Position numbers and translations under genes: made by a program. Positions 29,802 through 45,175 of a stretch of 54,712 bases of DNA are shown in pieces. Numbering within the stretch: the first letter of the stretch is position 1; each line of letters starts with the position of its first letter. The notes under the pieces are model-generated. The model saw nothing but the letters and a program-made list of their open reading frames with translations, made no database searches and was not told where the DNA came from. Source of the stretch: Minisyncoccota bacterium (GTDB lineage Bacteria; Patescibacteriota; Minisyncoccia; 2-02-FULL-40-12; IGHO2-12-FULL-4); contig DATDTF010000024.1 in assembly GCA_036517795.1 (NCBI GenBank), positions 1-54,712 of the forward strand, read 5' to 3'.

Positions 29802-29813
29802 GTTTATATTCTA

Positions 29814-30572
29814 ATGTTGAGAACTATTGCTGATGATCTTGGTCTCCATAAATCCGTTAATAGCGGTATTGTTTTTTTGTTGAGAGAGGGCAAGATAGAC
29901 GGGGCATCGTTAATGGCTAACGGAGAAGAGTTTGAAGATGCGGTCCGGCAATGTTTGGAAAATAAACTTTCAAATGTCGGTGTTCATTTAAATTTGGTTG
30001 AACAGCAGTCAGTTTTATCGGGTAAACCGATGTTAAAAAATCATCGAGTTTTTTTTATAAAATATATTCTAGGTTTAGTAAAAAAGGAAATTCTCCGGAA
30101 AGAACTGGAAGCGCAAGTTAAAAAAATTGTTCAGGCCGGGATAAAGCCTATTTTTTTGAACGGAAACCAACACCTCCATCTTTTGCCGGGAATTATGGAT
30201 ATTACTATAAGACTGGCGAAAGAATATCAAATACCTTATATAAGAATAATAAACGAACCGGCATCTCTTAAAAAAGGAAGTTTGTTCAGGGAACTACAGT
30301 TGGTTTTTTTGAATTTTCTGTCAAAATCGGCTAAAAGAAAAATTAAAAAAGCCGGTCTTGAGTGCAATGACTATTTTGTAGGATTTATTGACGCCGGTGT
30401 TATGAGCTTTAAAACTAAACAAGAAGCCGAGGTGTTGGCTGAAAAATATCCCGACAAGGTCATTGAGCTCGGCTGTCATCCTGGGTATGAAAGCGAGAGC
30501 CTAAGAAAAAAATTCAAACACTGGGGGAATTACAATTGGGAGGAAGAGCTAAACTTACTAAGACAACAATGA
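29814..30572 (+). CDS. YdjC/ChbG-family carbohydrate deacetylase (NaxD/LgmC-like by context)
   Basis: N-terminal DDLGLHKSVNSGI and NGNQHLHLLPG, typical of the YdjC family. Confidence 0.7.
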   Translation: MLRTIADDLGLHKSVNSGIVFLLREGKIDGASLMANGEEFEDAVRQCLENKLSNVGVHLNLVEQQSVLSGKPMLKNHRVFFIKYILGLVKKEILRKELEAQVKKIVQAGIKPIFLNGNQHLHLLPGIMDITIRLAKEYQIPYIRIINEPASLKKGSLFRELQLVFLNFLSKSAKRKIKKAGLECNDYFVGFIDAGVMSFKTKQEAEVLAEKYPDKVIELGCHPGYESESLRKKFKHWGNYNWEEELNLLRQQ

Positions 30573-31609
30573 GAATTTTATATTTGAGCAGATCAAAAAT
30601 GAACCACTCGGTTAACGCAGTCTATATCAAGGGATTAAGACTGAACGGGGCTGATGTTAAAGAGGTTTTTGTCCGCCATGATGAATTTTTTGAGCTTATT
30701 AAATATTTGGTCAGCAACCGAAAGACCTTTGATTCCGTTTTTGTCGGCTACGATAGCCCACAGCTTGTAATTTTATCAAAGCTTTTTTCAAGAAAAAAAG
30801 TTACCTACAATGCCCTCTGTTCTGTTTATGAAAGGTTGATTGTTTCAAGAGCGTTTGCGCCGCCCTACTCAGTAAAGGCGCTTTATTACTGGTTTTTGGA
30901 TTTTCTTTCTTTTAACTTGGCTGATTTGACAATGGTTGAGACCGACAGCCAAGCTGACTATTGCGCGAAATTTTTTCTAGCCCCAAGGAAAAAATTTTTC
31001 AGAGCTTGGACGGGAGTTGATGAGGAAAAATTTTATTTCAATCCGGACATAGATAAGTTTTCCAGATTCACGGTCATTTTCAGGGGGCAGTTTCTGCCCG
31101 AGTCGGGGGTTGAGTATGCGATTAAAGCGGCTAAAATTTTAGAAAATGAGGATATAAATTTTATTATTCATGGCGGCGGTTTTAATGCCGATAAAATCAA
31201 AAAGTTGGTGGAAGATTTAAAACCAAAAAATCTTAGGATGATAACGGACTTTTTGCCGGCAGAAGAATTAAGAACGCTTATGCAGAAGTGCCACTTAAGC
31301 TTGGGACAGTTGTCAGACCACCCGCGTCTTGAAAGAACGGTTCCCCATAAGGCATTCGAGTCACTGGCGATGAAACTGCCCTATCTGACCGTTTCCAACA
31401 AAGGTGTTCTTGAATTGTTAAAGACGGGAGAAGTTTGTGTTTCTTGCGAGTTGGCCAGTGCTGAATCTTTGGCTAAAAAAATACTGTGGTCAAAAGGTCA
31501 TCCCCAAGAGTTGGAACGGACAGCCGAGAATGGTTACTTGCTATATAAGGACAAGCTTAATTCCCTTGTTTTGGCCAAAAAACTGCTTGCCCACATAAAT
31601 TTATTATGA
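30569..31609 (+). CDS. GT-B fold glycosyltransferase, paralog of 14309-15364
   Basis: VIFRGQFLPESGVEYAIKAAKIL and TVPHKAFESLAMKLPYLT. ATG 30569 forms an ATGA overlap with the upstream stop and is preferred over track TTG 30536. Confidence 0.6.
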   Translation: MRILYLSRSKMNHSVNAVYIKGLRLNGADVKEVFVRHDEFFELIKYLVSNRKTFDSVFVGYDSPQLVILSKLFSRKKVTYNALCSVYERLIVSRAFAPPYSVKALYYWFLDFLSFNLADLTMVETDSQADYCAKFFLAPRKKFFRAWTGVDEEKFYFNPDIDKFSRFTVIFRGQFLPESGVEYAIKAAKILENEDINFIIHGGGFNADKIKKLVEDLKPKNLRMITDFLPAEELRTLMQKCHLSLGQLSDHPRLERTVPHKAFESLAMKLPYLTVSNKGVLELLKTGEVCVSCELASAESLAKKILWSKGHPQELERTAENGYLLYKDKLNSLVLAKKLLAHINLL

Positions 31610-33210: not shown

Positions 33211-34772
33211 GAATGCTAAAAATTAAAGATTTTATTAAGAATATTTCATATCTGCCGTTTCTGTATGGAACTTTTCCCATACTTTTTCTTTTTGCTCACA
33301 ATATAAGCGAACTGAAATACGAAATGCTGTGGGCGCCTCTTTTAACTGTTATTTTTGTAATTTTAGTTTTTACTGTTGTCTTGAGAATTTTTATTAAGGA
33401 CTACCGTAAATCAGGACTGATTCTTTCCTTGTTTTTTCTGCTCTTTCTGTCGTATGGTAATTTTAAAGAGCTGGTTTCCGGTGGATGGCTGGAGGGCATA
33501 GGTGTTATCAGGGACACATACCTATATCCTTTTGGGGTTTTGTTATTCGGATTAGCCAGTTATTTTATTATGAAATCCGGCGACTCAAAGATTGTGTATG
33601 GTTTTTTTAAAACCACGGGCTGTGTACTAATTGTCGTTTCTCTTGTGAGTATTGGTTCTAGCGCTTATTCAAACAGGCGCAACAATTCCGTTTTTCTAGA
33701 TGACGCGAGTCGGTCGGAGTCAAGCCAAAACCAAAATTTGCCTGATATTTATTATATTATTCCCGACACATACGCCCGGGCAGATGTGCTTAAAGAGCTC
33801 TATGATTACGACAACAGCGAATTCATTAACTTTTTAAAGGGAAAAGGCTTTTCAGTCCTTTCAGACAGTAAATCAAATTATCAAAATACCATGATATCCA
33901 TACCCTCAACGCTGAATATGGATTATTTGGACAACTTGCTCCCGGAAACTATAAGAGAGGATGACTTTAAGAACATGGTCCAAAACAGCCGGGTTCAGCA
34001 ATTTCTAAAGGAAAGAGGATATAAAATTATATATTTTGACTCAGGCTATGGAATAACAAGCTACAATAAATATGCTGATATTAAATTTAACTCCAGTTAC
34101 ATTAACGATTTTTCCCGTCAGATAATTGAAACTTCGGTACTCAAATATTTTTTAGTCAAAAGAAAACTTTTTGGATTTAGCATAAAAAACGAGGAAAGAA
34201 AAAGAATTTTATACAGTATTGATAAGTTAAAAGAAATTCCGGAAATGGAAGTTGGCGGGCCCAAATTTGTTTTTCTTCATATTAACTCTCCCCACACTCC
34301 ATTCTTGTTTGATCGAAATGGCAAAGATGTAGATGTGGATTGGTACTCTGTAACATCACCGGAAGAGTACAACAGTCTTTGGCTCGATCAACTCATTTTT
34401 ATAAGCGGACAATTACGTTCGGCTGTTGAAGAGATTTTGGCTAGGTCTAAAACAGAACCTATTATTGTAATTCAGTCAGATCACGGTCTTGAGGTTATGG
34501 CACAAGGATCGCCTGAAGAATTCTTTCAATCGGACACATTTACCGAAGCAAGGATTAAGAACTTTAGCGCGTTTTATCTGCCGGGTAACAAAAAAAAGAC
34601 TTTGCCGAATAACCTGACGAACGTTAATACTTTCCGCTTTATTTTTAAAAACTATTTTAATGCCGACTTCAACCTTTTAGAAAATAAGATTTATAGGTAT
34701 TTTGACTATTCACTTTTAAAGCGCCATTCGGATCTGAAGAATATGAAGCAAGTTCCTAAGAGCCTGCTTTGA
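33207..34772 (+). CDS. Membrane-anchored sulfatase/alkaline-phosphatase superfamily transferase (LtaS/phosphotransferase-like)
   Basis: About 5 N-terminal TM helices, then IYYIIPDTYARAD, HINSPHTPF and IVIQSDHG. Confidence 0.65.
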   Translation: MRMLKIKDFIKNISYLPFLYGTFPILFLFAHNISELKYEMLWAPLLTVIFVILVFTVVLRIFIKDYRKSGLILSLFFLLFLSYGNFKELVSGGWLEGIGVIRDTYLYPFGVLLFGLASYFIMKSGDSKIVYGFFKTTGCVLIVVSLVSIGSSAYSNRRNNSVFLDDASRSESSQNQNLPDIYYIIPDTYARADVLKELYDYDNSEFINFLKGKGFSVLSDSKSNYQNTMISIPSTLNMDYLDNLLPETIREDDFKNMVQNSRVQQFLKERGYKIIYFDSGYGITSYNKYADIKFNSSYINDFSRQIIETSVLKYFLVKRKLFGFSIKNEERKRILYSIDKLKEIPEMEVGGPKFVFLHINSPHTPFLFDRNGKDVDVDWYSVTSPEEYNSLWLDQLIFISGQLRSAVEEILARSKTEPIIVIQSDHGLEVMAQGSPEEFFQSDTFTEARIKNFSAFYLPGNKKKTLPNNLTNVNTFRFIFKNYFNADFNLLENKIYRYFDYSLLKRHSDLKNMKQVPKSLL

Positions 34773-35967
34773 TCTTTTCGTAAAGACGCATATACTGTTC
34801 CGTCATCTTTTCAACCGTAAAGCCAGTTTTTATTTTTTCTATAGAGTATCGTCTCATTTTTTCTGTTTCTTGAGGCGGCAGGTTTAATAAGTAGTCTAAA
34901 CCTATTTTAAGGTCATCAGCATTTTTATATTCGGCTATGTATCCGTTTATTTTATGTTCCACCAGTTCCGGTATGCCGCCGGTGTTGAAAGAAACAACCG
35001 GTAGTCCGCAAGCCATGGCTTCAAGGACGACTAGGGGACAGTTGTCGGCTATTGAGGGGTAGAGGAGTATGTCAGCGGCGGAGTAGTATTTAGCCAAAAT
35101 GTTTTGGTCGGCCACGTAACTGACCACCTTGCCTTGGTTTGTGCTATTGTTGGCGTCACCGCCTAAATCAACGAAAAAGGCCCTAGAATTGCCGGTAAAG
35201 GCCTTTATGGTGTCTTGGACATAGTCACCACCCTTCCAGGGGTTTGACTGGCCTCTTTTCGCCACAATTAGAATAATCTGCTTGTTTTGGGGCAGGTTCA
35301 ACAGATGTCGTGCCTCTTGTTTGTCGTAGGGTTTAAATATTGAGGCGTTGATGCCATTATAGATGACTGATAGTGGTCTGTCTCCAAGAATACTCTGCTT
35401 AACTTTGTCTGCCAGCCATCTGGAAGGTGTCACTATGCAAAAGTTAGCGTTTCTATAAATTTCCCCTTTTCTTTTTTCAAGATATCTTTCATTGTGCCAG
35501 GCGATAGGAGGGTATATGTCTAAACTGGGGCAGGTAAAAAACCCGTTTTCTTTTAAGGCTCCGCCAAAAGAATGGGCGCAGTGGGCGGTTATCGGCCACA
35601 TGTCATGAAATGTCCAAATAATCGGCTTGACGGCTGAAATTTTTTTCAGAGTGCTAAGGTTGAAGTAGTTTGTGTGAAGATTGTGGCAGTGAATAATGTC
35701 GGCTTTTTTGAATTCCGGCATTTTTAAAATATGCTCTGATGGAAAAAAGTTCAGGTCGTTGGCGAGGTAATAAGTTACTTTTTTTAATATCCTTCGGCGG
35801 AGGTTGTTGTCTGGCCGTATCAGCATTACATTGCTGTCTTGAGAATATTTTCGGGACACCAAAAGAGTTGATTTGTGACCCCGTTTCTCCAGTTCGCCTT
35901 GGAGACAGTAAGCAACTTTTCCGGCTCCGCCTTTTGTATCCGAAGTATTTATTTGCAGGATGTTCAT
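34756..35967 (-). CDS. GT4 glycosyltransferase
   Basis: DNCPLVVLEAMACGLPVVSFNTGGIPELVEHKINGY. Overlaps the convergent 33207 gene by 17 bp. Confidence 0.8.
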   Translation of the reverse strand: MNILQINTSDTKGGAGKVAYCLQGELEKRGHKSTLLVSRKYSQDSNVMLIRPDNNLRRRILKKVTYYLANDLNFFPSEHILKMPEFKKADIIHCHNLHTNYFNLSTLKKISAVKPIIWTFHDMWPITAHCAHSFGGALKENGFFTCPSLDIYPPIAWHNERYLEKRKGEIYRNANFCIVTPSRWLADKVKQSILGDRPLSVIYNGINASIFKPYDKQEARHLLNLPQNKQIILIVAKRGQSNPWKGGDYVQDTIKAFTGNSRAFFVDLGGDANNSTNQGKVVSYVADQNILAKYYSAADILLYPSIADNCPLVVLEAMACGLPVVSFNTGGIPELVEHKINGYIAEYKNADDLKIGLDYLLNLPPQETEKMRRYSIEKIKTGFTVEKMTEQYMRLYEKIKAGS

Positions 35968-35979
35968 AAAAGTTAATTA

Positions 35980-36855
35980 CTAGAGCCATTTTTCCATTTG
36001 TTGTTTCAACTCTTTTACGCTCCAGTTTCTCACTACGAAACGGGGCAGAGTGTGAAGTGGGGTATTTCTGCCCACTCTCCTATGTATATTTGAGCAGGCA
36101 TATTGAAAGCCGTTTTTTTTGACCAGGTTTACTGTGTTTTTGTCAAAAGTTCCTTTTCCTCCGAAAGGATAAGCAAAAGAGTTTATGGGCATGCCCAAAA
36201 GTTTGTTTAGGGTTTGTCTGCTTCCGGCTATTTCTTCGGCTTGTTCACTAATGTTGATTTTTGAAAGCTTGGGATGGTTGATTGTGTGCGCTCCTATCTC
36301 AATAAATTTACTGGATGAAAGCTTTTTGAGTTCTTCCCGATTGACACATCGTCCTCTATCTTTTTCTGGGCTGCCTTCTTCCCAGAAGAACGGAGCACCG
36401 TTATCGATGTTGCTGGTAGTGATAAAAATTGTTGCGGGGATTCCGTATTTTTCCAGTATCGGCAGGGCATTGTGTAGGTTGTCGGCGTAACCGTCGTCAA
36501 ATGTTATAACAAGACGACCTTTGCCAAGCTTCCTTGACTTCAAGCTGTTTGCCAGTTCGTTTAAGCTTATTATTTTGAATTTATTTGACAGATAAATAAG
36601 TTGGTTTTCAAAATTTTCTGAACTGACGCTTAACTGGTAAATGTCGTTTTCCGGTTCTGCTATCCGATGATAAAGAAGTATGATTGCGGTGGGAAATAGT
36701 GCATTATAAAATTTTAAGGTTACTCCACGTATGAAGCAATACAGTTTTTTGGCCGGAATAAAAAAGGGTGTTTTGCGGAGTATGTTCTTGCATTTTTTAT
36801 AAATTAATTTTGCCATTTTGCGGTAGTAGAAGGTAGTCGCCAACAATAAGAGCAT
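35980..36855 (-). CDS. Polysaccharide deacetylase (CE4/NodB family)
   Basis: LLYHRI, ITFDDGYADN and GAHTINHP motifs. The true start may be ATG 36816 (MAKLIY), which reduces overlap with the upstream gene to 20 nt. Confidence 0.75.
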   Translation of the reverse strand: MLLLLATTFYYRKMAKLIYKKCKNILRKTPFFIPAKKLYCFIRGVTLKFYNALFPTAIILLYHRIAEPENDIYQLSVSSENFENQLIYLSNKFKIISLNELANSLKSRKLGKGRLVITFDDGYADNLHNALPILEKYGIPATIFITTSNIDNGAPFFWEEGSPEKDRGRCVNREELKKLSSSKFIEIGAHTINHPKLSKINISEQAEEIAGSRQTLNKLLGMPINSFAYPFGGKGTFDKNTVNLVKKNGFQYACSNIHRRVGRNTPLHTLPRFVVRNWSVKELKQQMEKWL

Positions 36856-38584
36856 CTAGGTTGATGGATTTGAAAGTTCGCACCGCGTCTTCCGGAGTTT
36901 CAACGATTGGTTCGCCTGAATCGTTGAATGATGTATTTAGTACGACCGGCACGCCGGTTATTTTTTGGAATTCTTTTATAAGTGAATAAAACTTTGGATT
37001 CTGGTCCGCATTAACCGTCTGTACGCGAGCCGTGCGGTCTATGTGGGTTATTGCCGGTATGTTGTCTTTTTTTACCTTGGCAATAAGGAGCATAAATGGA
37101 CTGGGGCAATCAAGATTAAAATACTCACTGACAAGTTCTTCAAGACAGGCTGGAGCGAAAGGACGAAATGACTCCCGGTGTTTTACTTGCATGTTTAGCC
37201 TGTCTTTCATTCCCGGAGGAACGGGGGAGCATAGAATACTTCTGTTGCCCAAGGCTCTGGGGCCATATTCGCTTTTTCCCTGAAACCAGCCGATAATTTT
37301 TTCATCTGCCAATAGTTTTGCCGCCGTCGCTTGGGGGTTATCAAGCTTTTTATAATTGCATCCCGAGTGGGACACAGCGTCAAAAATTTCTTTTTCTCCA
37401 TATTCTCTGCCGAGATAGGCGTTATCCATCCGCCATTTAATCGGGTTTTTATTTAGCTGATGGCTTGCCCACAAAGCTGCGCCGAGAGCTAAACCGGAGT
37501 CGCCGGAAGCGGGCTGGATGAAGATATTTTCAAACGGAGTGTTGTCTAAAATCTTTTTATTCGCGACACTGTTCAGGCCAACACCGCCGGCAATACATAG
37601 ATTTTTTGATTTTGTTACATTGTGCAGATGTGTCGCATATTCAATCATAACTTTTTCCAGGTAAAACTGCGCCCAGTAGGCCAGCTCTGTGTATAAGCCG
37701 TCAGGAAATTTTATTTTTTTATTTGCACGCGGATTTTCAAAGAAAATTTCGGGGGTCTTGGGGAAATGTTGAGGTTTTTCATAGGCCAAACCTTTTTTGG
37801 AAAAATAATGGACAACCGACTTCAACTGTCTCAACAAAGCTGACCTTCGTGAGATGGATGTCTTTCTGAAAAGGTACTTTAAGCCCATGTCAGGATGCGG
37901 TTCCAGACGGGAAGGAAAAATATAACGGGACTGGGCTGTTCTTTTGAGGAATTGTTCCTCGGGAATATTTGAAATAAATCCGCCCTTGCCGTAGGGTGCC
38001 AAACCCATTGTTTTACCCTCTTCGTGATTACCGAATCCCAGGAAATACGTAACTTGGGAATAAAAGTTGCCGATACCCGAAAAATTTAAAAGCCATCCGG
38101 TGAACTGGTTAACCGGAGCATAATTGCGGGTGATTTGATGTAAACCGTCATTATTACCGCGATAAAATGTTTCTGTTTCTACGCCGATTAGTCCCGTTGC
38201 CAACTTGGTTTTCTGGCCCGCGCTGTCAACCACCAGAACCGCTGCATCATCAAAGGGGGAACAAAAAAAGGCGCTGGCTGCGTGAGCGTCGTGGTGGTTA
38301 ACGAAGATAGCTTTATGGGCTATTTTGTCCCACCAGCCGTGCTGTTTAAGCAGGTCTATCAACGGCGCAGTTGTCATGGTTATTTGTTCAATGGCAACAA
38401 CATCCACATCATCTATGCTTTTTAGGCCTGCTGTAGACAGGCAGTAGTTGATTGACTCCTTTGGAAATGTTCTGGAATATTTTTTCCGGTCCAGCCGTTC
38501 TTGAGATATCGCCACCACTTTGTCATCTATCAACAAAGCGGCGCCCGTGTCGTGTTCCAAAATTTTTAGTCCAAGTATTGTCAT
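36797..38584 (-). CDS. Carbamoyltransferase (NodU/CmcH/NovN family)
   Basis: MTILGLKILEHDTGAALLIDDKVVAISQERLDRKKY N-terminus, HHDAHAASAF, and a C-terminal LNTSFN motif; 595 aa. Confidence 0.8.
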   Translation of the reverse strand: MTILGLKILEHDTGAALLIDDKVVAISQERLDRKKYSRTFPKESINYCLSTAGLKSIDDVDVVAIEQITMTTAPLIDLLKQHGWWDKIAHKAIFVNHHDAHAASAFFCSPFDDAAVLVVDSAGQKTKLATGLIGVETETFYRGNNDGLHQITRNYAPVNQFTGWLLNFSGIGNFYSQVTYFLGFGNHEEGKTMGLAPYGKGGFISNIPEEQFLKRTAQSRYIFPSRLEPHPDMGLKYLFRKTSISRRSALLRQLKSVVHYFSKKGLAYEKPQHFPKTPEIFFENPRANKKIKFPDGLYTELAYWAQFYLEKVMIEYATHLHNVTKSKNLCIAGGVGLNSVANKKILDNTPFENIFIQPASGDSGLALGAALWASHQLNKNPIKWRMDNAYLGREYGEKEIFDAVSHSGCNYKKLDNPQATAAKLLADEKIIGWFQGKSEYGPRALGNRSILCSPVPPGMKDRLNMQVKHRESFRPFAPACLEELVSEYFNLDCPSPFMLLIAKVKKDNIPAITHIDRTARVQTVNADQNPKFYSLIKEFQKITGVPVVLNTSFNDSGEPIVETPEDAVRTFKSINLDALIVGDYLLLPQNGKINL

Positions 38585-38588
38585 GGTG

Positions 38589-39302
38589 TTATGCTAATTT
38601 GCACCAGATAAAATAATAATTTCTGGGTTTGGTCGGCCATATTCTTCTTTTTACAGCCCTGTAAATTCTGAACGGATCAGACACTTTTCGGATAAAACTG
38701 AAAACAGTTTTTGGTTCTGCGGTCGCGACCGGTGGTTTAAAACTGAAAACTTCCACAACTCTCAATCCGTTCTTCTCTATCATTTCTTTAAAATCATTTA
38801 TGTTGGTTGACTCCGAATGTTCCTGCAGCAGTATTGAACCGTCCGGTTTTAAAAACTTATGAATATCCTGATAAAATTTTCTGTGGATATTAAAGTTGGG
38901 ATCAAACAGGATGATGTCTTTTTTGTATTCATCTTCGGTCGCGCAAAAAACGTGGGGCGGATTGCCGACGACCAAATCCCATTTTTCTGTTTCCGGAACG
39001 TTGTCCAGGCAGTCGGACAAGTGGGCGGTGACTGTTTTTTCCAGATTATTTTTTTTGATAGTTTTATTGCAGGCCTCAACTGCTTCAGGATTAACATCGG
39101 CTAGGGTTAATTTGTCGCAAAGGTTATTAGCCAGCAATGAAAACCCGATAAATCCTGGTCCGGCGCAGAATTCAAATATGTGGCCGACGTGTCCGAACTT
39201 TTCTTTCACAACAGAAACATACTGTTGCCCGAATCGCATTCCTCCGCCGTGTAGGCTCTTTTTGTATGCGACTTCTATGTTGTTGTATCGGATGTGTTTC
39301 AT
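38589..39302 (-). CDS. SAM-dependent methyltransferase with a (D/N)PP(Y/F/H)-type motif (amino-group methylase class)
   Basis: Motif I FEFCAGPGFIG; motif IV VVGNPPHVF. Confidence 0.65.
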   Translation of the reverse strand: MKHIRYNNIEVAYKKSLHGGGMRFGQQYVSVVKEKFGHVGHIFEFCAGPGFIGFSLLANNLCDKLTLADVNPEAVEACNKTIKKNNLEKTVTAHLSDCLDNVPETEKWDLVVGNPPHVFCATEDEYKKDIILFDPNFNIHRKFYQDIHKFLKPDGSILLQEHSESTNINDFKEMIEKNGLRVVEVFSFKPPVATAEPKTVFSFIRKVSDPFRIYRAVKRRIWPTKPRNYYFIWCKLA

Positions 39303-39346
39303 AAATTAAAAATTTTAGTTTAAACTTTACATTTTCTATTCTAAAC

Positions 39347-40231
39347 TTATAATTTTATTTCTTCAAAATTTACCATAGGAAAAACATCCAAAAAACTATC
39401 GGGGGTGGCATTGAATATTTTTAGGTCGGGATGGGTTTTGAATGCCTTGGCGTAAAACAACCGGTAATTGCGAAATAATTGCAGTATGTTGGCTATCGTC
39501 ATTTCATAATTAAGTTTTAAATCCTTCGGATCAACATATTTTTTTAGAACTTCGTCGTTTGTACTGTCAAGTTTAGCAATTTCGTCCTCATAGCTGTGGC
39601 TGAATGTTAACGATTTACCATAGCCCATGTTGTGTGATAGAAAGTTGTGCTCACAGCCGAGGAGGTATATTTCGTTGAAACCCATCCATGCTGCAGCCAT
39701 CATGCACATCAAAACCGAATTTTTGGGGTAGGGAACATAGCGGTCAATATCTATGTTGAATGGCAGGTTCTCGGTAAAGATTCCCTGTGTGCCCACATAA
39801 TAAACACGGTGCTGTTTAAACAGGTTATATTTCTCCACAAACGACTTTGCCGCTAGGTTAATAATCACGGTTGTGTCTGTTGATATCTTTCCGTCTTTTT
39901 CTCGTAGACTGCGGGGCCAGTATTCCGTTAAGTCCTCGGTAAAATAAACCGAGTCTGTGATGATGTGGAATTTCGGCCTTAACTTTTTTGCTTGCGTATT
40001 TTTTTCAAATTCAGCCATCACAAAAGTATATTCATTGCTAAGCTTTTCTAAATCAAGGTTACTGACAGACGGACCGTTGCCGATAATAAAGCATCTTTTG
40101 CCGGAATGTATATTCTTAATTTCTAAATTTTTTTTAAGAATATTTCCGTCCCGATAGTTATATAAGCGGGGGGCAAAAAAGTTTCTGTAAAGATAGCTGT
40201 TAATAGATTTTAGTTTGTTTAGAACTTTCAT
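39347..40231 (-). CDS. DUF115 (MptE/Maf-like) protein, candidate nonulosonic-acid transferase
   Basis: CFIIGNGPSVSNLDLEKL ... KFHIITDS ... NSVLMCMMAAAWMGFNEIYLLGCEHNF matches the DUF115 layout. It also resembles my recollection of the GT42 (CstII) VIIAGNGPSL ... GVYMCAVAIALGYKEIYLSGIDFY. Confidence 0.55.
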   Translation of the reverse strand: MKVLNKLKSINSYLYRNFFAPRLYNYRDGNILKKNLEIKNIHSGKRCFIIGNGPSVSNLDLEKLSNEYTFVMAEFEKNTQAKKLRPKFHIITDSVYFTEDLTEYWPRSLREKDGKISTDTTVIINLAAKSFVEKYNLFKQHRVYYVGTQGIFTENLPFNIDIDRYVPYPKNSVLMCMMAAAWMGFNEIYLLGCEHNFLSHNMGYGKSLTFSHSYEDEIAKLDSTNDEVLKKYVDPKDLKLNYEMTIANILQLFRNYRLFYAKAFKTHPDLKIFNATPDSFLDVFPMVNFEEIKL

Positions 40232-40233
40232 TT

Positions 40234-41160
40234 TTAGTTTCTTATTTTTAAATAGGTTCCAAGGTGTTTGACCTGTTCTTCTGTGGTTAGCAGTTGTTTC
40301 TGGTTGTTTAAAAATGCTTTGACCTGTTTGAAGAGACCGGGTTTAAAATTTGTATCCAGCTCATCTTCCAGGGGGTAGTCTTCTACCACCATACTTCCAT
40401 ATTTTTGTATCTGAAGCTTTTCTAACGGCCGGAACATAAGTTTTGTTTTAGAGGTTATTATCTCTATGCCCCATTTGCCGGCCGACTCCCAATTGGCGTG
40501 ATATGAAAACAAAGCTCCTGTTTCTGATATACCGGCTCCGGAAAACACTGACCCGCCAGGATGCCATTTTAACCCACTCTTTTTATAGGTTGAAAGTTTT
40601 TTTGGCCATCCACCCATAAAAAATGCCATATCAATAACGTGTGAGGAGTTTTGAATAAACCACTCCCGTTTTATCCTGTCTGATTGGGCGAGTTTTTCCA
40701 CTATATAACTCCTTTCGGTAAAATCAAAATAAAAAGATTTAACCCCGCCGTCTTTTTTTATTAAATTCAAAGCGGCCAGAGTAGAGGCGTAAAATCTTCT
40801 GTTGTAGCCAACGGATACTTTTGCTTTTTTGTTTTTTGCTAACTGGGCTACTTTTTTTATATCATCCGTATTCAATCCCCCCGGCTTTTCAACCAATATA
40901 TTTTTACAGCCAGAATTTAGCAACTCTGCAGTGGCTGTTCCAAGCTGGTCTTCGGTTACAGCAATGATGGCTTTGTCGGTAACTTCGTTTTTTTTGAGCC
41001 AACTGCTCAAACCGCCGCTTTCCGCTTTTACACCAATTTCAGCCGTGAAAGTATCAGACGAAACTTGAGATCTGCCGACAACAACAAACGGCAATTTCAT
41101 TGCTTTCAAAACCTTGGCGTATTCTTTGGCCATGTATCCTGCTCCGACAAGTAAAATCAT
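40234..41160 (-). CDS. Gfo/Idh/MocA-family NAD(P) oxidoreductase
   Basis: MILLVGAGYMAKEY Rossmann N-terminus, ILVEKP motif. Confidence 0.7.
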   Translation of the reverse strand: MILLVGAGYMAKEYAKVLKAMKLPFVVVGRSQVSSDTFTAEIGVKAESGGLSSWLKKNEVTDKAIIAVTEDQLGTATAELLNSGCKNILVEKPGGLNTDDIKKVAQLAKNKKAKVSVGYNRRFYASTLAALNLIKKDGGVKSFYFDFTERSYIVEKLAQSDRIKREWFIQNSSHVIDMAFFMGGWPKKLSTYKKSGLKWHPGGSVFSGAGISETGALFSYHANWESAGKWGIEIITSKTKLMFRPLEKLQIQKYGSMVVEDYPLEDELDTNFKPGLFKQVKAFLNNQKQLLTTEEQVKHLGTYLKIRN

Positions 41161-42110
41161 GTGAATGGGTAATGCTTTAATTTAAAATATTTTCTTATGG
41201 GTTCAAATGTCTGAAGATGAAGTCTCGCGGACTCTTTGTAGGTCGGTAAAGAGATTTTGCCGCTATCAAGCAAATTCTCTACAACTGTCGTGGTTAGACG
41301 GCTTTGGTAGGGGAGGTTAAGTTTAACTTCTTCTGTTTTCCAGTCAGGCGCCTTAAAAAGGAGAGCCTTGTTTTGGTTTTCAAATATAGTATATCTTTTT
41401 TCTTCATCAAAAATTTCTAAAATCTTGGGGCTTTGACCACTACTGTCGCATCTGACTATCAGCTGGCTGCCATTTTTGAAGAAGACAGACAGGGAGCCGG
41501 TTGTTTCCAGATAGCCGTTGCGTTTGCTGTTCTTAAGTTTTTTATCAAGCAATCGGGTATCAACATCAAAATCGGTTGAACCGGTCAGAAAAGAAACAAA
41601 GTCAACGTGGTGGATTAAGTCCGTAGCCATTCCCGACTCGTTGCCGTACAGGACGTAGGTAATATTTTTTCCGTCAAACTCTTTCTTTAAATCGGCGTAA
41701 AAAGGCATCATTCTCATTGGACAGTTGACCCATGTTCTGACTTTTTTTATCTCCAGAAGCCGGTCTATTTGAGAGTAATCACTTTTTTTCTGAAAAAGTA
41801 TTTTTTCCAGAATCAGAGACTTAACCTCATTGGTCTTTAATAGTTCTTTGGTGATAGCCGCCCGGGGCCCAGACGAGGTCGCAATTATTGCAACTTCAAA
41901 AGTTAAGTCCCTGGGCATCTTGTTTGAGTATTTCAAAACATGGTTTCCGCCAACCGTGTCCATGGAGTTGTACCTTTCTTTGGCTGTGTTGAGAGAGTCT
42001 GTGGAGTTGTCTACAACCAAGACGTCCAGCGACTCCTTAACGGCTTTTAGGGCTTGAAGGTGTCTGGATCCGATTTGGCCTGCGCCAATAATGCAAACTT
42101 TTTTTGTCAT
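41157..42110 (-). CDS. Gfo/Idh/MocA-family NAD(P) oxidoreductase
   Basis: VCIIGAGQIGSRHLQAL, ILEKI motif; ATGA overlap with the downstream gene. Confidence 0.7.
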   Translation of the reverse strand: MTKKVCIIGAGQIGSRHLQALKAVKESLDVLVVDNSTDSLNTAKERYNSMDTVGGNHVLKYSNKMPRDLTFEVAIIATSSGPRAAITKELLKTNEVKSLILEKILFQKKSDYSQIDRLLEIKKVRTWVNCPMRMMPFYADLKKEFDGKNITYVLYGNESGMATDLIHHVDFVSFLTGSTDFDVDTRLLDKKLKNSKRNGYLETTGSLSVFFKNGSQLIVRCDSSGQSPKILEIFDEEKRYTIFENQNKALLFKAPDWKTEEVKLNLPYQSRLTTTVVENLLDSGKISLPTYKESARLHLQTFEPIRKYFKLKHYPFT

Positions 42111-42112
42111 AT

Positions 42113-42823
42113 TTAGATTGTTATCTTTCTTTTATTGATTAACTCTCGAACCCGTTCCAGGTCCGCCACAGTGTCAAGGTCAATATTTGAGTCGCTGTCC
42201 ACGTGATATGGAATGGTTTTTGTGGAATAAAGGCGCTCGTCCTTTAAGAAAGTTTTCCTGTCTATGATATAAATTGATCCGCTAGATAAATAAATTTCTG
42301 GTAGAGACTGGCGATTTGCAAAAGGGTATCGGTTGTTGACAGTACCAACTAAGTAGCCCTGCCCGGTTAATTTAAAAGATTTAAGAAGTTTTTTGTCCAG
42401 TTTATATACGCTGATAAGAGCCGTGGCCTTACTGTTCAAAAATTTTTCCAAGGCCCCGTCAATGTCACTTACGGTTCTTAGTGGTGAGGTTGGTTCAAGG
42501 TATATGATAATGTCAGGGGTGTATTTTTTTGTGGACAGTATTTTTAAAGCGTGAGTGAGAGATGGTTCAGGAGATACATTGTCAGTAGCTAGTTCCTTGG
42601 GTCTTTTAATCGTTTCAGCGCCATATAGCTTGGCGGCGGCTAAAATTTTTTTGTCTTGGGAAGACACAACGATTTTGTCAATATATTTTGATTTCTTAGC
42701 CTCATCAATCGTCCAGGCTATAAGCGGTTTTCCATTAAGATCAACAATGTTTTTGTTGGGTATGCCTTTTGATCCGCCACGGGCAGGAATGAAGGCTAAA
42801 ATTTTTTTGGGTTTTATGCTCAT
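42113..42823 (-). CDS. Acylneuraminate (CMP-nonulosonate) cytidylyltransferase, paralog 1
   Basis: AFIPARGGSKGIPNKNI and LEPTSPLR signatures of the CMP-NeuAc/CMP-Kdo synthetase family. Confidence 0.8.
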   Translation of the reverse strand: MSIKPKKILAFIPARGGSKGIPNKNIVDLNGKPLIAWTIDEAKKSKYIDKIVVSSQDKKILAAAKLYGAETIKRPKELATDNVSPEPSLTHALKILSTKKYTPDIIIYLEPTSPLRTVSDIDGALEKFLNSKATALISVYKLDKKLLKSFKLTGQGYLVGTVNNRYPFANRQSLPEIYLSSGSIYIIDRKTFLKDERLYSTKTIPYHVDSDSNIDLDTVADLERVRELINKRKITI

Positions 42824-42845: not shown

Positions 42846-42873
42846 ATTTTACATGTTTTTTGAAATATATCAA
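42846..42873 (-). promoter_or_regulatory. Promoter for the 42823-34756 operon (TTGATA-N16-TAAAAT)
   Basis: Minus-strand TTGATA = 42873-42868; TAAAAT = 42851-42846; GGAAGG lies downstream. Confidence 0.5.
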
Positions 42874-42938: not shown

Positions 42939-44000
42939 ATGATTCTTGCAACTTGCAGAAATCTAGGTGGATTGAATCAAGTTCTTCCAGCTACTAAAGA
43001 GTTAAGGAGGCGAGGCTATGGAGTTGTTATTGCTACTAATGGAAGAGTTGTCGCAGAATCCCTTTCTGCCCAAATGGAACCATTTATCTTTGCCGATTCT
43101 CCTTTATTTATACTGGATGCTGTCCGTAACGTTAACTTGTTTTTTACCAGTACGTGTTTTGGGGGAATCGGTAGAAAGTTAATCACCGATGCTTCTCTAG
43201 GTTGTCCGAAGATCGTCTTGCAGGATTTCTGGGGAGCGGGAGTTTTTACAGATTGGAGAGAAGTCCGATATAGGCCTGATTACATATGCGTGAACGATCA
43301 GGTTGATTCCGAGATTACCCAAAAGGCGTGGCCCGAATTTGATAAAAGCAAGATAAAGGTTACCGGTTATTCAGCGTTTGATAAATATATCTTGGTTGAT
43401 GTGAAATCTCAACAGGAACTGGTTTTTTCAAAGCTGGGCTTAGACTCGCGCAAGAAAATGGTTCTGTTTGCGGGTCATGCTTATGGAACTGTTGGCGCAC
43501 TCTTTGAATTGGTCAAAGTTTTAAATGACGTCCAAGCTGGTATTTATCTGGTTGTCAGATTTCATCCAAGGATGACAGAACATGAAGGCGGGGATAAAGA
43601 AAAGTTAGATTGTCTGGACATCCTTACTGATTTTAGGGGAGGGGATTTGGTCAAGGATACGACAATGTTTGATAGTCCTACAGTTCTGAGTGCGGCTGAT
43701 GTGGTTATTAGTATGTATAGTACAATGCTTGTTGAGGCGGCGGTTTTGCGGAAGCCAAATATTTCTATCTTGTACCCGGACAAAGGTATGCGGCAATTTT
43801 TCTCCGAGTGTCCCGGATTAGATGAGTCTCCTTTGGTTTCTTTGGGCTGTAGCCTAAAAGCAACAAATCGGGAGGAGTTGGAGTTGGCTGTAAGGGACGC
43901 TCTAAAAAGAAATTCTCTGTTAAGAATACAGGAAAACAGTTTTAAACTAGACGGTATGAATACCAATCGGATTGTAAACTTTTTAGAGAGCTTAATATAA
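42939..44000 (+). CDS. Hypothetical GT-B-fold-like protein (MurG/LpxB/2-epimerase-like C-terminal motif), family unassigned
   Basis: 353 aa. C-terminal SAADVVISMYSTMLVEAAVLRKPNISILY resembles the donor-binding helix region of GT-B enzymes. It is a single-gene unit with its own promoter and terminator. Confidence 0.35.
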   Translation: MILATCRNLGGLNQVLPATKELRRRGYGVVIATNGRVVAESLSAQMEPFIFADSPLFILDAVRNVNLFFTSTCFGGIGRKLITDASLGCPKIVLQDFWGAGVFTDWREVRYRPDYICVNDQVDSEITQKAWPEFDKSKIKVTGYSAFDKYILVDVKSQQELVFSKLGLDSRKKMVLFAGHAYGTVGALFELVKVLNDVQAGIYLVVRFHPRMTEHEGGDKEKLDCLDILTDFRGGDLVKDTTMFDSPTVLSAADVVISMYSTMLVEAAVLRKPNISILYPDKGMRQFFSECPGLDESPLVSLGCSLKATNREELELAVRDALKRNSLLRIQENSFKLDGMNTNRIVNFLESLI

Positions 44001-44013
44001 GCTCTCTTTTTTT
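43985..44013 (+). terminator. Intrinsic terminator of the 42939 gene
   Basis: AGAGAGCTTA-ata-TAAGCTCTCT: perfect 10-bp stem containing the TAA stop, followed by TTTTTTT. Confidence 0.8.
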
Positions 44014-45175
44014 AAATGAGCTTTATGTCCCGAAACTGTTTTTGGACTATTCCTCCCCAGACTTTATTTTGGGTCAAAATCTTTAAAAAGTTTTTTTGGC
44101 TTTTTCCATAGCCAAACATTTTTACCGGTTTAAAACGATTTGTCGTTGATAAACTTTTTGCTAACTCCAAGATTTTTGTTTTGCTAAAGTTACAATTAAA
44201 TATACTTTCTACTCCGGTAATTCTTTTGTACTGCCTTGTCCCCAAGTTGATTGTCGGGACTCCATAGTAAGGAGCTTCTCTTATGCCGGCGCTTGAGTTA
44301 CCGATTATGAAACTCGCATTTTTTAACAGGGTAAGAAAGTGTTCAAAGCGAATTGACGGAAATATCTTAAATTTTGAGTTATTTGTCAGCTTTTTTGCAT
44401 AAACACTTCTTATCGTGTCAGTACCGGGATCATTGCTGGGATGAATTACTATATAGTTAAGATTAGATTCAAGCAGGGCCTGTACCAAGGTGTCAGTTTG
44501 ACTATTAAGAGTATCAAGTTCGGTTGTGACTGCGTGATGTGCCAAGATAGAGTATTTATTGTAAGAAATCCCATACCGTTTTTTTGTCTCTTTTAAGGTG
44601 GGCAGATTTTTTGAGAGCATTATATCAATATCTGGAGAGCCGATTGTAAATATGCTCTTGGGATATTCGCCCATTTGTATCAACCTTTTGCGCGCTTCTC
44701 CATTGGCTACAAAATGCAAGTGCGACACCTTGCTTATCGCGTGGCGTATATGTTCGTCTATGGTGCCGGATATTTCCCCGCCTTCAATGTGGGCTACGGT
44801 AATATTTTGAAAACTACCCGCTAAAGCCCCGGCAAGGGCTTCCACCCTGTCACCATGAACAATAATCAGGTCGGGTTTGAATTCCTTAACATAGTTGCCG
44901 AACCCAATGAGCGTGCTTGCCATTACGGACTCCATTGAGGAATTGCCGGAGTGATTAATGTATTTATAAATGTTGGGGAACCCTTCTTTTTCTATTTCAT
45001 CTACCGTGTAACCATATTTAGATAACATGTGCATTCCTGTGGCAAAAACATGAACGTCAAATTTGTGGTTTTTTGACAGCCCTCTTATGAGTGATTTTAT
45101 TTTACCGAAATCCGCCCGTGTGCCGGTCAGAAAAACAACCCTTTTTTTCTTTGTATCTTTTATATATTTTTCCAT
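44012..45175 (-). CDS. neuC: UDP-N-acetylglucosamine 2-epimerase, hydrolysing (NeuC/LegG type)
   Basis: VVFLTGTRADFGKIKSLI, IVHGDRVEALAGA and HIEGGE motifs. Confidence 0.85.
   Translation of the reverse strand: MEKYIKDTKKKRVVFLTGTRADFGKIKSLIRGLSKNHKFDVHVFATGMHMLSKYGYTVDEIEKEGFPNIYKYINHSGNSSMESVMASTLIGFGNYVKEFKPDLIIVHGDRVEALAGALAGSFQNITVAHIEGGEISGTIDEHIRHAISKVSHLHFVANGEARKRLIQMGEYPKSIFTIGSPDIDIMLSKNLPTLKETKKRYGISYNKYSILAHHAVTTELDTLNSQTDTLVQALLESNLNYIVIHPSNDPGTDTIRSVYAKKLTNNSKFKIFPSIRFEHFLTLLKNASFIIGNSSAGIREAPYYGVPTINLGTRQYKRITGVESIFNCNFSKTKILELAKSLSTTNRFKPVKMFGYGKSQKNFLKILTQNKVWGGIVQKQFRDIKLI

Follow-up and report, generated by a model that had tools for sequence, protein, structure and literature searches.

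An eight-gene operon with a predicted role in late tailoring and transfer of a sialic-acid-like sugar in a CPR bacterium

What would be made by eight tightly packed genes that place a cytidylyltransferase and two oxidoreductases ahead of a DUF115 protein, a methyltransferase, a carbamoyltransferase, a deacetylase and a glycosyltransferase? The genes lie in a contig of 54,712 nucleotides from an uncultivated Parcubacteria-type CPR bacterium of Rifle aquifer groundwater (DATDTF010000024.1), which as a whole is called the window here. The favoured reading, with a probability of about 0.55, is that they are the late-stage half of a nonulosonic acid (NulO) surface-glycan locus and comprise four modules. 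CT2 would make or handle, in CMP-activated form, the NulO that NeuC and NeuB from the neighbouring operon provide. One secondary hydroxyl of this sugar would be oxidised to a ketone by GfoA (NAD-type), and reduction from the opposite face by GfoB (NADP-type) would give an epimer. The DUF115 protein would transfer the sugar from CMP-NulO to an acceptor glycan. GT4 would attach a HexNAc, probably GlcNAc, and the CE4 enzyme would remove its N-acetyl group in the cytoplasm. MT would N-methylate, and CbmT O-carbamoylate, either this residue or the neighbouring NulO, resembling the logic of NodB, NodS and NodU. The operon is built from known enzyme types; the widespread GfoA-GfoB pair is the part for which no description was found.

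Gene content and surroundings

34756-42823, minus strand: eight-gene operon, tightly packed, predicted to tailor and transfer a sialic-acid-like sugar
42113-42823, minus strand: CT2, CMP-NulO synthetase paralogue, 236 aa (PF02348, 83.9 bits)
41157-42110, minus strand: GfoA, divergent Gfo/Idh/MocA oxidoreductase, 317 aa (PF01408, 30.4 bits)
40234-41160, minus strand: GfoB, second divergent Gfo/Idh/MocA oxidoreductase, 308 aa (PF01408, 40.3 bits)
39347-40231, minus strand: short DUF115/MptE-like protein, 294 aa (PF01973, 28.5 bits, below the cut-off of 34.6)
38589-39302, minus strand: MT, HemK/MTS-type SAM methyltransferase, 237 aa (PF05175, 49.9 bits; NPPH at residue 114)
36797-38584, minus strand: CbmT, NodU/CmcH/TobZ-family O-carbamoyltransferase, 595 aa (PF02543 and PF16861)
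35980-36855, minus strand: CE4 (NodB-fold) de-N-acetylase, 291 aa (PF01522, Polysacc_deac_1, 96 bits)
34756-35967, minus strand: GT4 retaining glycosyltransferase, 403 aa (PF00534 and PF13439)
42846-42873, minus strand: sigma-70-like promoter match TTGATA-16-TAAAAT, consensus match only (10/12)
42939-44000, plus strand: TagB/TagF-like GT-B protein, 353 aa, divergently transcribed (PF04464, 31.9 bits, cut-off 22.1)
43985-44007, no strand assigned: hairpin with T-run where the TagB-like gene and neuC converge
44012-51253, minus strand: supply operon with NeuC, NeuB, ElaC/PtmA-like SDR, ElaA/PtmF-like Gfo1, CT1 and WbuX-HisH-HisF

All eight ORFs of the preliminary description were present on the minus strand, and profile searches found the domains named there. 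On sequence grounds the eight genes are an operon. Each has hundreds of homologues, and blocks of them are syntenic across independent genomes, so the genes are real. None of the proteins has a TM-like segment; all are soluble, and all of the proposed steps would thus take place at the cytoplasmic face, ahead of export.

NeuC (TIGR03568, 401 bits) and WbuX (372 bits) of the supply operon were clear matches, while NeuB reached 373 bits against TIGR03569, below the cut-off of 399.65. WbuX-HisH-HisF correspond to acetamidino formation. The best PDB matches of Gfo1 were RgNanOx and YjhC. The window holds this one NeuB, and its sole aminotransferase is RfbH-like; neither a PglD-type acetyltransferase nor PtmE was found in it. 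Legionaminic acid itself, which the preliminary description mentioned, was not established as the sugar. Genes for the 7-amino group were likewise absent from the window, which counts against the favoured reading.

A comparison of about 100 related loci showed the operon to be a mosaic of modules. In five loci DUF115, MT, CbmT, in some cases CE4, and GT4 occur without the Gfo pair. In seven others GfoA, GfoB and DUF115 precede GT4, with MT11 and CE4 as optional members, and CbmT is missing. One locus (L038) combines the Gfo pair with MT and CbmT as the window does. All 22 genome loci recovered belonged to CPR bacteria (Patescibacteria) in a scan by two peptide patterns specific to close relatives, and the nearest named homologues were from Candidatus Yanofskybacteria. 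The identical eight-gene block was present in Rifle aquifer metagenomes. This combination was seen only in the organism's own population and, as the preliminary description had supposed, is not described as a pathway.

The cytidylyltransferase and the oxidoreductase pair

CT2 is 37% identical to CT1 of the supply operon and carries the PARGGSKG motif. It scored 148.8 bits against PseF (TIGR03584, cut-off 205.7), and its full-length PDB matches were the CMP-Neu5Ac synthetase 6ifd (140 bits) and entry 1eyr (100 bits). A CMP-Kdo synthetase (KdsB), which the preliminary description had set beforehand against its own reading, was ruled out: the KdsB match was confined to the N-terminal 65 to 110 residues or so (24-33 bits), whereas CT2 resembled NeuA, LegF and PseF over its full length.

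For both GfoA and GfoB only the N-terminal domain was detected by PF01408 (cut-off 24 bits). The AF2 model of GfoA (pLDDT 93) matched sugar dehydrogenases in Foldseek with TM-scores of about 0.7 (GnnA, inositol dehydrogenases, YjhC, RgNanOx), matches that do not discriminate the substrate of the pair. GxGxxGSRH, E102, K103, H167 and D170 are invariant in the GfoA family; GfoB has EKP at residue 91 and an invariant N-S-[ST]-H-x-x-D. The catalytic Lys and His/Asp are invariant in both families. Behind beta-2, GfoA has the NAD-type signature Asp34 (D34 in 65 of 68 sequences), and GfoB the NADP-type signature Gly29-Arg30-Ser31 (G29 in 47/47, R30 in 38/47). The cofactors are assigned from these signatures by a general Rossmann-fold rule, a point that counts against the favoured reading. 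GfoA is proposed to be the oxidising and GfoB the reducing partner.

The Gfo genes belong together and are paired with NulO genes. Among 55 metagenome loci, 44 had GfoB no more than two ORFs behind GfoA on its downstream side, and about 75% of the loci with the pair were NeuB/NeuC/cytidylyltransferase clusters. Where at least 6 kb of upstream sequence was available (n = 32), NeuB was present in 24 loci, NeuC in 22, a cytidylyltransferase in 22 and WbuX in 17. In Flavobacterium, in locus L034 and on a Sphingomonadaceae plasmid the pair stands last in classical Leg-type clusters, and in another locus it lies directly 5' of a GT38-like polysialyltransferase. About a quarter of the loci with the pair had no NeuB within 10 kb, which speaks against the favoured reading, as does the lack of detectable sequence similarity between GfoA or GfoB and the ElaA-like Gfo1.

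The preliminary description had regarded a cytidylyltransferase next to two oxidoreductases as compatible with epimerisation. This view has published precedents (PMC13656337, PMC12053666), and the complementary NAD and NADP signatures are consistent with it. By analogy, the pair fits a two-enzyme oxidise/reduce epimerase that would be analogous, not homologous, to ElaABC and EpaAB, acting at C4 or C8.

Alternatively, the pair could catalyse an earlier step on a nucleotide-linked hexosamine precursor, for example an oxidoreduction at C3 or C4 by which the stereochemistry of the precursor would be set, or a non-epimerising redox reaction, or form a complex with one catalytic subunit. We consider this group of explanations doubtful but worth weighing. 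Within the CPR the pair frequently comes after a 4,6-dehydratase instead of a cytidylyltransferase (directly behind a Polysacc_synt_2 dehydratase in seven loci), so action on a nucleotide-hexose is also compatible, a point against the favoured reading. The UDP-GlcNAc 3-dehydrogenase GnnA was among the top Foldseek matches, and the lack of an aminotransferase in window-type clusters makes additional chemistry on the precursor plausible. Outside the CPR, however, the pair ends the NulO block, where the cytidylyltransferase or WbuX precedes it and Wzx, Wzy or a NulO transferase follows, and in the window and two further loci (L015, L035) it stands right behind a dedicated cytidylyltransferase. 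The retention of the catalytic residues in both families also speaks against these explanations.

Decoration, transfer and transcription

For MT the lengths of homologues (238-243 aa) favour the long start. The protein scored only 63.6 bits against PrmC (TIGR03534, cut-off 199) and 153 bits against PDB entry 9l4q, an unnamed 'MTS domain protein'. It is probably an N-methyltransferase whose target is the nitrogen of an amine, amide or amidine. Eight DUF115 loci have the close CbmT type (76-86% identical), and in 6 of them MT adjoins CbmT; of the exceptions, L013 has no MT ORF and L024 has MT11, on the other strand, in between. CbmT gave 157 bits for Carbam_trans_N, 233 bits for Carbam_trans_C and 267 bits for TobZ (3ven), and the HHDAH metal motif was found.

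The CE4 enzyme has the motifs DDG and HTINH and is assigned to the cytoplasm because it has neither a signal peptide nor a TM segment. Its nearest NCBIfam models, each below cut-off, were PgaB, IcaB and HfsH, whose substrates are oligo- or polysaccharides. Its gene adjoins that of GT4 in six loci. The best NCBIfam match of GT4 was BshA (94 bits, below cut-off), and BshA, a UDP-GlcNAc enzyme, was also its nearest solved relative (5d00, 2jjm, 3mbo); the PDB matches covered only the C-terminal half (51 bits), which counts against the favoured reading. GT4 homologues (41-76% identical) terminate the operon in most complete CPR DUF115 loci and are missing from four.

According to the preliminary description, all eight genes would serve one activated NulO that is epimerised, N-methylated (e.g. 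N-methyl-acetimidoyl), carbamoylated and de-N-acetylated at the level of the CMP-sugar or free sugar. The tight gene packing and the cytoplasmic nature of all eight products agree with this, and WbuX, HisH and HisF in the adjacent operon would make an amidine nitrogen available to an NPPH-type methyltransferase. The idea nevertheless appears unlikely and is not supported by the independent assortment of the modules: MT and CbmT occur with DUF115 and GT4 where the Gfo pair is missing, and CE4-GT4 occurs without MT and CbmT. The substrates of the CE4 relatives also speak against it, as does the occurrence of the MT family outside NulO loci; its two non-glycan contexts count against the favoured reading as well. 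It is more likely that MT, CbmT, CE4 and GT4 decorate a glycan residue, in the manner of Nod factors, than that they act on the activated NulO.

The DUF115 protein has GNGPS at residue 51; across its family Gly53 and Ser55 are invariant, and Pro54 nearly so. The best Foldseek match of its AF2 model (pLDDT 88) was Maf (5mu5; E 2.9e-5, probability 1.0, TMq 0.46), followed by ST8SiaIII and ST6GalNAc2. In fold and motif the protein thus looks like a NulO transferase, in agreement with the earlier suggestion of a transferase. It is a candidate CMP-NulO glycosyltransferase that consists of a Maf/GT42-like catalytic domain alone. The modest TM-scores to Maf (0.46) and the sialyltransferases (0.37) and the sub-cut-off Pfam score count against this.

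The TagB-like GT-B protein, encoded outside the operon, is a second candidate NulO transferase of the same system. That it is the real one, and the DUF115 protein an MptE-like kinase or a scaffold, for instance, is quite improbable. The DUF115 family is named for the MptE pterin kinase, the TagB-like gene is found again next to Gfo and/or DUF115 genes in ten loci (L009 and L010 taken as one), and TagB-type enzymes are proposed transferases of Pse/Leg derivatives in Tannerella forsythia (PMC5420450). Set against this are the conserved GNGPS motif and the structural matches to Maf and eukaryotic sialyltransferases. Furthermore, DUF115 was present in every recovered locus (by construction in the genome scan) and the TagB-like gene only in some, and in B. 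subtilis Leg transfer does not require the TagB-type protein SpsB (PMC7439481). The DUF115 and TagB-like proteins may both be transferases.

The single promoter of the preliminary description was recovered as a site in the 115-nt divergent intergenic region, and GGGAAGG was found upstream of the ATG. The AT-rich region contained 31 promoter-like matches compared with 18.5 +/- 4.6 in shuffles, so the site is weak evidence of a promoter. The hairpin and T-run between the convergent genes are a likely terminator that would part the eight-gene unit from the upstream NulO operon. Separate transcription of eight genes from unrelated pathways that are mere neighbours within a large polysaccharide locus is hardly credible: a 44-nt gap ahead of MT with a weak promoter-like match (39366-39338) and the mosaic origin of the operon point that way, but the remaining spacings from 5' to 3' are only 2, -4 and 2 nt before this gap and 4, -59 and 12 nt after it, the sole minus-strand terminator-like site is a weak hairpin of three GC pairs inside CbmT (37830-37811), and the order from DUF115 to GT4 is kept in most complete CPR loci.

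Comparison with known systems

PtmB/PtmF/PtmA of C. jejuni are a comparable arrangement. ElaB/ElaA/ElaC form a CMP-Leg5,7Ac2 8-epimerase cassette in A. baumannii KL49 and V. vulnificus (PMC13656337). Both sets share with the operon a CMP-NulO synthetase beside two NAD(P)-dependent oxidoreductases in a NulO cluster, together with the proposed course of oxidation to a keto intermediate and face-selective reduction. In contrast to these sets, the putative reductase of the operon is a second Gfo/Idh/MocA protein and not an SDR. An ElaABC-like trio (SDR-Gfo-CT) is present in the upstream operon, outside the eight genes; such a trio and the Gfo pair co-occur in five other loci, so the two sets are not redundant.

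The phage-encoded EpaA and EpaB convert Pse to 8-epi-Pse (PMC12053666). Like the module proposed here, they join a cytidylyltransferase domain to two redox enzymes as a portable add-on that turns a NulO into its epimer. EpaA is a fusion of cytidylyltransferase and aldo-keto reductase and EpaB an SDR, and neither is a Gfo/Idh/MocA enzyme, unlike those of the operon.

The TagB-like protein at 42939-44000 resembles Tanf_01245/BFO_1060 of T. forsythia (PMC5420450) as a GT-B protein in a NulO locus. The family match is partial (NF046086, 48.9 bits, cut-off 200), and the protein has 353 aa compared with about 445. The DUF115 protein shares the GNGPS-type nucleotide-sugar motif, a similar fold and the linkage to NulO biosynthesis genes with Maf (PF01973) and the GT42 enzyme CstII, but lacks the flanking domains of Maf (about 630 aa). 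CPR bacteria usually have no flagella, and the probable acceptor is a glycan and not flagellin.

Nod factors are tailored by NodB (CE4), NodS (N-methyltransferase) and NodU (carbamoyltransferase), and HfsH is a cytoplasmic holdfast deacetylase. The operon similarly joins a cytoplasmic CE4 enzyme, a probable N-methyltransferase and a NodU-family carbamoyltransferase beside a glycosyltransferase predicted to add HexNAc. It differs from the Nod set in that MT is of the HemK/MTS type (NPPH) and not of the NodS type, the glycosyltransferase is a GT4 and not NodC (GT2), and the context is a surface-glycan locus instead of a lipo-chitooligosaccharide pathway.

Structure and setting of the operon

Eight minus-strand open reading frames were recovered with the boundaries proposed in the preliminary description. 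From the first gene to the last they are separated by 2, -4, 2, 44, 4, -59 and 12 nt. The genes and the neighbouring features are as follows.

46200-48652, minus strand: SDR-Gfo1-CT1 trio, in the upstream operon (44012-51253)
43985-44007: hairpin with T-run, between the convergent neuC and TagB-like genes
42939-44000, plus strand: TagB/TagF-like GT-B protein
42873-42846, minus strand: promoter-like site
42113-42823, minus strand: cytidylyltransferase CT2
41157-42110, minus strand: Gfo/Idh/MocA oxidoreductase GfoA
40234-41160, minus strand: Gfo/Idh/MocA oxidoreductase GfoB
39347-40231, minus strand: DUF115 protein
38589-39302, minus strand: HemK/MTS-type methyltransferase MT
36797-38584, minus strand: carbamoyltransferase CbmT
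35980-36855, minus strand: deacetylase CE4
34756-35967, minus strand: glycosyltransferase GT4

The domain assignments made on first reading were all reproduced with Pfam and NCBIfam, the DUF115/MptE-like one at a score below the Pfam cut-off. The motifs PARGGSKG, GNGPS, NPPH, HHDAH, DDG plus HTINH, and EKI/EKP were intact across the operon proteins, and a TM-like segment was present in none of the eight products (0/8). The promoter from which all eight genes were suggested to be transcribed was found again, but the DNA here is AT-rich and contains many similar matches. The predicted hairpin with its T-run sets the eight-gene unit apart from the upstream operon. The first 59 nt of CE4 lie within the end of the carbamoyltransferase gene, so CE4 may in fact begin at the internal Met14.

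The 54.7-kb window is a polysaccharide locus throughout. The upstream minus-strand operon at 44012-51253 encodes NeuC and NeuB, followed by the SDR, Gfo1, CT1 and WbuX-HisH-HisF. The eight-gene block was present in identical form in Rifle aquifer metagenomes, and the closest named relatives were Candidatus Yanofskybacteria. All 22 loci recovered in a scan of species-representative genomes (22/22) belonged to the Patescibacteria (CPR); the two peptide patterns searched for are specific to close relatives, and the count therefore does not demonstrate a restriction of the DUF115 family to CPR.

CT2 and the GfoA-GfoB pair

CT2 matched CTP_transf_3 (PF02348) with 83.9 bits (Pfam cut-off 22.6) and contained the P-loop PxRxxSKxxxxKN as PARGGSKGIPNKN at residues 13-25. 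Alignments with 6ifd (140 bits) and 1eyr (100 bits) spanned residues 6-233, whereas KdsB structures aligned to the first ~65-110 residues only, with 24-33 bits. CT2 was rejected as a CMP-Kdo synthetase, since KdsB models and structures cover only its N-terminal nucleotide-binding part, and the earlier assignment as an enzyme of the CMP-nonulosonic acid (NulO) type stood on full-length similarity to NulO synthetases. No sugar specificity was assigned at the equivalog level; the best NCBIfam model, PseF TIGR03584, scored 148.8 bits, below its cut-off of 205.7. CT2 was 37% identical to CT1 of the upstream operon.

The N-terminal Rossmann domain PF01408 was detected in GfoA with 30.4 bits and in GfoB with 40.3 bits (cut-off 24). 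The C-terminal substrate domain was not picked up by Pfam in either protein. The AF2 model of GfoA (pLDDT 93) has the canonical two-domain fold, C-terminal alpha/beta substrate domain included, and in Foldseek both domains aligned to many sugar dehydrogenases with a TM of ~0.7, which upheld the fold and did not discriminate the substrate. A PDB sequence search with GfoA, GfoB and the DUF115 protein gave no useful match. The catalytic Lys motif is EKI at residues 102-104 of GfoA and EKP at residues 91-93 of GfoB; its E and K were invariant in 68 of 68 sequences, counted for the GfoA family. A C-terminal His and Asp were likewise invariant in the family alignments (H167 and D170 in GfoA, H174 and D177 in GfoB). 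Both proteins are highly divergent; they share 27% identity, confined to the N-terminal 135 residues. An NAD-type signature, Asp after beta-2, occurred in 65 of 68 GfoA sequences, while GfoB has the NADP-type Gly-Arg-(Gly/Ser) at this position (Gly in 47/47 and Arg in 38/47).

A metagenome scan returned 79 loci. GfoB was no more than two ORFs away from GfoA in 44 of the 55 loci having room for it, and the DUF115 gene was found in only 7 of these 44. Among the 32 loci whose upstream sequence reached 6 kb or more, NeuB was present in 24, NeuC in 22, a cytidylyltransferase in 22, WbuX in 17 and PtmE in 16. Homologues of GfoA also occurred outside CPR, in a Flavobacterium sp. and on a Sphingomonadaceae plasmid; in both, and on many unassigned environmental contigs, the pair lies in NulO clusters. 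The gene order in the Flavobacterium sp. is LegB-LegC-PglD-NeuB-NeuC-PtmE-CT-HisF-HisH-WbuX-GfoA-GfoB-Wzx, and that on the plasmid is LegB-LegC-NeuC-NeuB-AT-NTase-hyp-CT-oxidoreductase-GfoA-like-hyp (323 aa). The plasmid was the only informative match of the pair in annotated collections; NCBI annotation calls the two proteins only 'Gfo/Idh/MocA oxidoreductase' and 'hypothetical protein'. One related locus, L034, carries the pair plus a divergent SDR-CT-Gfo1 trio, and in L079 a GT38-like polysialyltransferase directly follows GfoB. In the non-CPR loci L039, L058, L041, L081 and L085 an ORF of ~240-267 aa lies between GfoA and GfoB (11083-11805 in L039, 7213-8016 in L058); Pfam gave no match to it.

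The preliminary description had considered epimerization by oxidation and reduction, and the best reading is that GfoA and GfoB would form a two-enzyme oxidize/reduce epimerase acting late on the NulO. This reading is based on the general Rossmann-fold rule and on analogy with ElaA/ElaC, EpaA/EpaB and the inositol pair IolG/IolW. To our knowledge, the genetics of 4-epi-legionaminic acid are still open. The enzyme pair is not confined to CPR, and its assignment, if true, would account for a step so far unassigned in many NulO pathways and help to predict the NulO isomer made by a cluster.

Candidate transferases and tailoring enzymes

The DUF115 protein scored 28.5 bits with PF01973 (gathering cut-off 34.6), and many members of its family carry a precomputed PF01973 match. 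The family gave more than 1200 matches, of which the best 120 had 47-88% identity and a length of about 295 aa. GNGPS stands at residues 51-55; G53 and S55 were invariant in the family alignment and P54 was conserved in at least 90%. We take this motif to resemble that of CstII (GT42). With the AF2 model (pLDDT 88) the closest Foldseek match was the Maf glycosyltransferase 5mu5 (E 2.9e-5, probability 1.0, TMq 0.46), followed by ST8SiaIII and ST6GalNAc2 (5bo9, probability 0.99; 6apl, 0.90). Unlike Maf, the protein lacks large flanking domains, its 294 aa corresponding to the catalytic domain only. Flagellar genes, to which Maf is linked, were found neither in the window nor in the related loci. 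We read the DUF115 protein as a candidate minimal CMP-NulO transferase. Few Pse/Leg transferases are known to us, and a Maf-like domain of this size, if it is a minimal NulO transferase, could be used as a tool and for testing the working of Maf-type enzymes.

The divergently encoded TagB-like protein at 42939-44000 is a second candidate for NulO transfer, by analogy with Tannerella forsythia; it partially matches the BFO_1060 family of T. forsythia Pse/Leg-derivative transferases. A gene for CDP-glycerol synthesis was not seen in the window. The T. forsythia NulO transferases have a TagB/GT-B domain and not a Maf/DUF115 domain (PMC5420450). In Bacillus subtilis the TagB-type protein SpsB is dispensable for Leg transfer (PMC7439481).

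MT matched PF05175 with 49.9 bits and has NPPH at residue 114, as expected for the MTS fold (NPPY/H). Scores with the PrmC and PrmB equivalogs were below cut-off (63.6 vs 199 and 46.5 vs 230 bits), so far short that a release-factor methylase was rejected. The nearest structure, 9l4q, is a strong homologue and an unnamed MTS protein. Gene calls of two metagenome assemblies start 21 codons later (216 aa); the longer ORF of 237 aa was preferred because homologues have 238-243 aa and the 9l4q alignment begins at residue 7. Three loci with MT homologues outside CPR were examined; the contexts of two were unrelated and that of the third was a sugar cluster, and the tie between MT and the carbamoyltransferase was seen in CPR loci only. 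CbmT contains Carbam_trans_N (157 bits) and Carbam_trans_C (233.5 bits) with HHDAH (HHxAH metal site) at residue 97; it scored 267 bits with TobZ and only 178 of the 1000 bits required for the NodU equivalog. CE4 contains Polysacc_deac_1 (96.3 bits), with TFDDG at residues 118-122 and HTINH at 190-194, and its closest profile models were PgaB, IcaB and HfsH. GT4 has Glyco_transf_4 and Glycos_transf_1 domains (62.9 and 78.5 bits), and its closest solved relatives, BshA enzymes, match the C-terminal half only.

In the proposed pathway GT4 would add a HexNAc, from which CE4 would remove the N-acetyl group in the cytoplasm; MT would N-methylate and CbmT would carbamoylate this residue or the NulO. 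Alternatively, MT may methylate an acetamidino group or the carbamate nitrogen.

Related loci, the nonulosonic acid and comparison with known systems

The window proteins were mapped onto about 100 related loci, in which two recurrent architectures were distinguished. Type I has the order ...CT-NeuB-NeuC-(AT-aminotransferase-dehydratase)-GfoA-GfoB-DUF115-(Methyltransf_11-type MT)-(CE4)-GT4 (L007, L008, L009, L015, L017-L019, L021-L023, L035, L043, L048 and L056). Type II, without the Gfo pair, has NeuB-HisH-HisF-WbuX-(divergent SDR)-DUF115-HemK-like MT-CbmT-(CE4)-GT4 (L011, L012, L014, L020 and L024). The window combines a Type I 5' half with a Type II 3' half. The order CT2-GfoA-GfoB-DUF115 is common to the window, L015 and L035; identities to L014 were 71% for MT, 79% for CbmT, 51% for CE4 and 60% for GT4, and the two loci also share the convergent downstream neighbours Sulf (68%) and u463 (79%). 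The junction itself recurs in L038 as GfoA-GfoB-DUF115 (88%)-MT (72%)-CbmT (80%). From this comparison, DUF115 and the terminal GT4 are the usual core, with DUF115 lacking the terminal GT4 in L023, L026, L027 and L030. MT and CbmT make up a single accessory unit, and CE4 is paired with GT4. About ten related loci also have the TagB-like gene next to Gfo and DUF115 genes. In L012, L014 and L028 a protein that measures ~604-619 aa and includes a partial NeuB-like region lies beside a NeuB of normal length, upstream of the Type II DUF115.

The window encodes a single NeuB and neither a PglD-type acetyltransferase nor PtmE, and its sole aminotransferase is RfbH-like, so that legionaminic acid is not established as its NulO. 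An aminotransferase or acetyltransferase for the 7-amino group was also absent from the window. Its NeuB was ~70% identical to those of L015, L019, L035, L038, L053 and L076, which likewise lack 7-amino genes, but only 31-42% identical to those of CPR clusters having them. Together these results suggest that the product may be a mono-amino NulO of the Neu or 9-deoxy type. The window has two sets of a cytidylyltransferase with two oxidoreductases versus a single NeuB. The best solved relatives of Gfo1 were the sialic-acid-acting RgNanOx and YjhC.

Further gene sets were observed in the window.

263-1855, plus strand: PMT_2-type GT-C protein, 530 aa
5591-7852, plus strand: Wzy_C protein (O-antigen ligase/O-oligosaccharyltransferase-type), 753 aa, ~11 TM, C-terminal TPR repeats
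19180-23408: SDR-family NDP-hexose dehydratase-like gene (PF01370/GDP_Man_Dehyd), 621-aa three-domain TPP enzyme and RfbH-like PLP/PMP enzyme (395 bits, just under the RfbH cut-off)
27139-30572, plus strand: 554-aa protein (at least 9 TM, no Pfam match), GT2 (314 aa) and YdjC-family protein (252 aa), accompanied by a GT4 at 30536-31609

The GT-C and Wzy_C proteins are candidates for the step in which the completed glycan is joined to its final acceptor. The genes at 19180-23408 may belong to a branched-chain 3,6-dideoxyhexose (yersiniose-type) pathway. The set at 27139-30572 resembles in its logic LgmA/LgmC/LgmB or FlmF2/NaxD/FlmK, which produce a polyprenyl-P-HexNAc, deacetylate it and carry out its transfer outside the cell; sets of this type are convergent to DUF115-GT4 operons in L009, L012, L031, L043 and L111.

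A wider reading, to which we give a probability of about one in five, takes the Gfo pair as a new, widespread NulO epimerase that would oxidize with NAD and then reduce with NADPH at a site other than that of ElaA/ElaC, e.g. C4. The window would then hold two complete cassettes of a cytidylyltransferase and an oxidoreductase pair, CT1/Gfo1/SDR and CT2/GfoA/GfoB, with two NulO-transferase candidates (the TagB-like and DUF115 proteins), and in this episymbiont-type CPR bacterium one NeuB product would yield two NulO epimers displayed beside an N-methylated, carbamoylated glucosamine. No description of these sugars together on one glycan was found. The open literature on Gfo-Gfo pairs in NulO clusters yielded nothing beyond ElaA and NanOx, and a search for open-access papers about NulO glycans of CPR/Patescibacteria found none. 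If made, a surface glycan that is sialic-acid-like, cationic or carbamoylated could affect the host attachment of these ultra-small bacteria.

Every enzyme class in the operon is known, and the logic of epimerization by a cytidylyltransferase and two oxidoreductases has been published (PMC13656337; EpaA/EpaB, PMC12053666). New are the elaborate NulO loci in CPR bacteria, the short DUF115 family of candidate transferases, and the Gfo-Gfo pair, which is widespread, unnamed in curated annotation and apparently unrelated to ElaA, as judged via the ElaA-like Gfo1. The GT4, CE4, MT and CbmT steps would be alike in logic to NodB/NodS/NodU. An ElaABC-like trio is present at 46200-48652, where the composition SDR-Gfo1-CT1 corresponds to ElaC-ElaA-ElaB, the proposed CMP-Leg5,7Ac2 8-epimerase cassette (PMC13656337). 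The Gfo pair co-occurs with ElaA/ElaC-like pairs in L034, L053, L076, L098, L099 and the window, which speaks for different functions of the two sets. A cassette of the ElaABC type was not found in the eight-gene operon, which has no SDR and whose GfoA and GfoB showed no similarity in BLAST to the ElaA-like Gfo1. Thus, the operon would be analogous to ElaABC in its working logic and is not a member of that cassette type.
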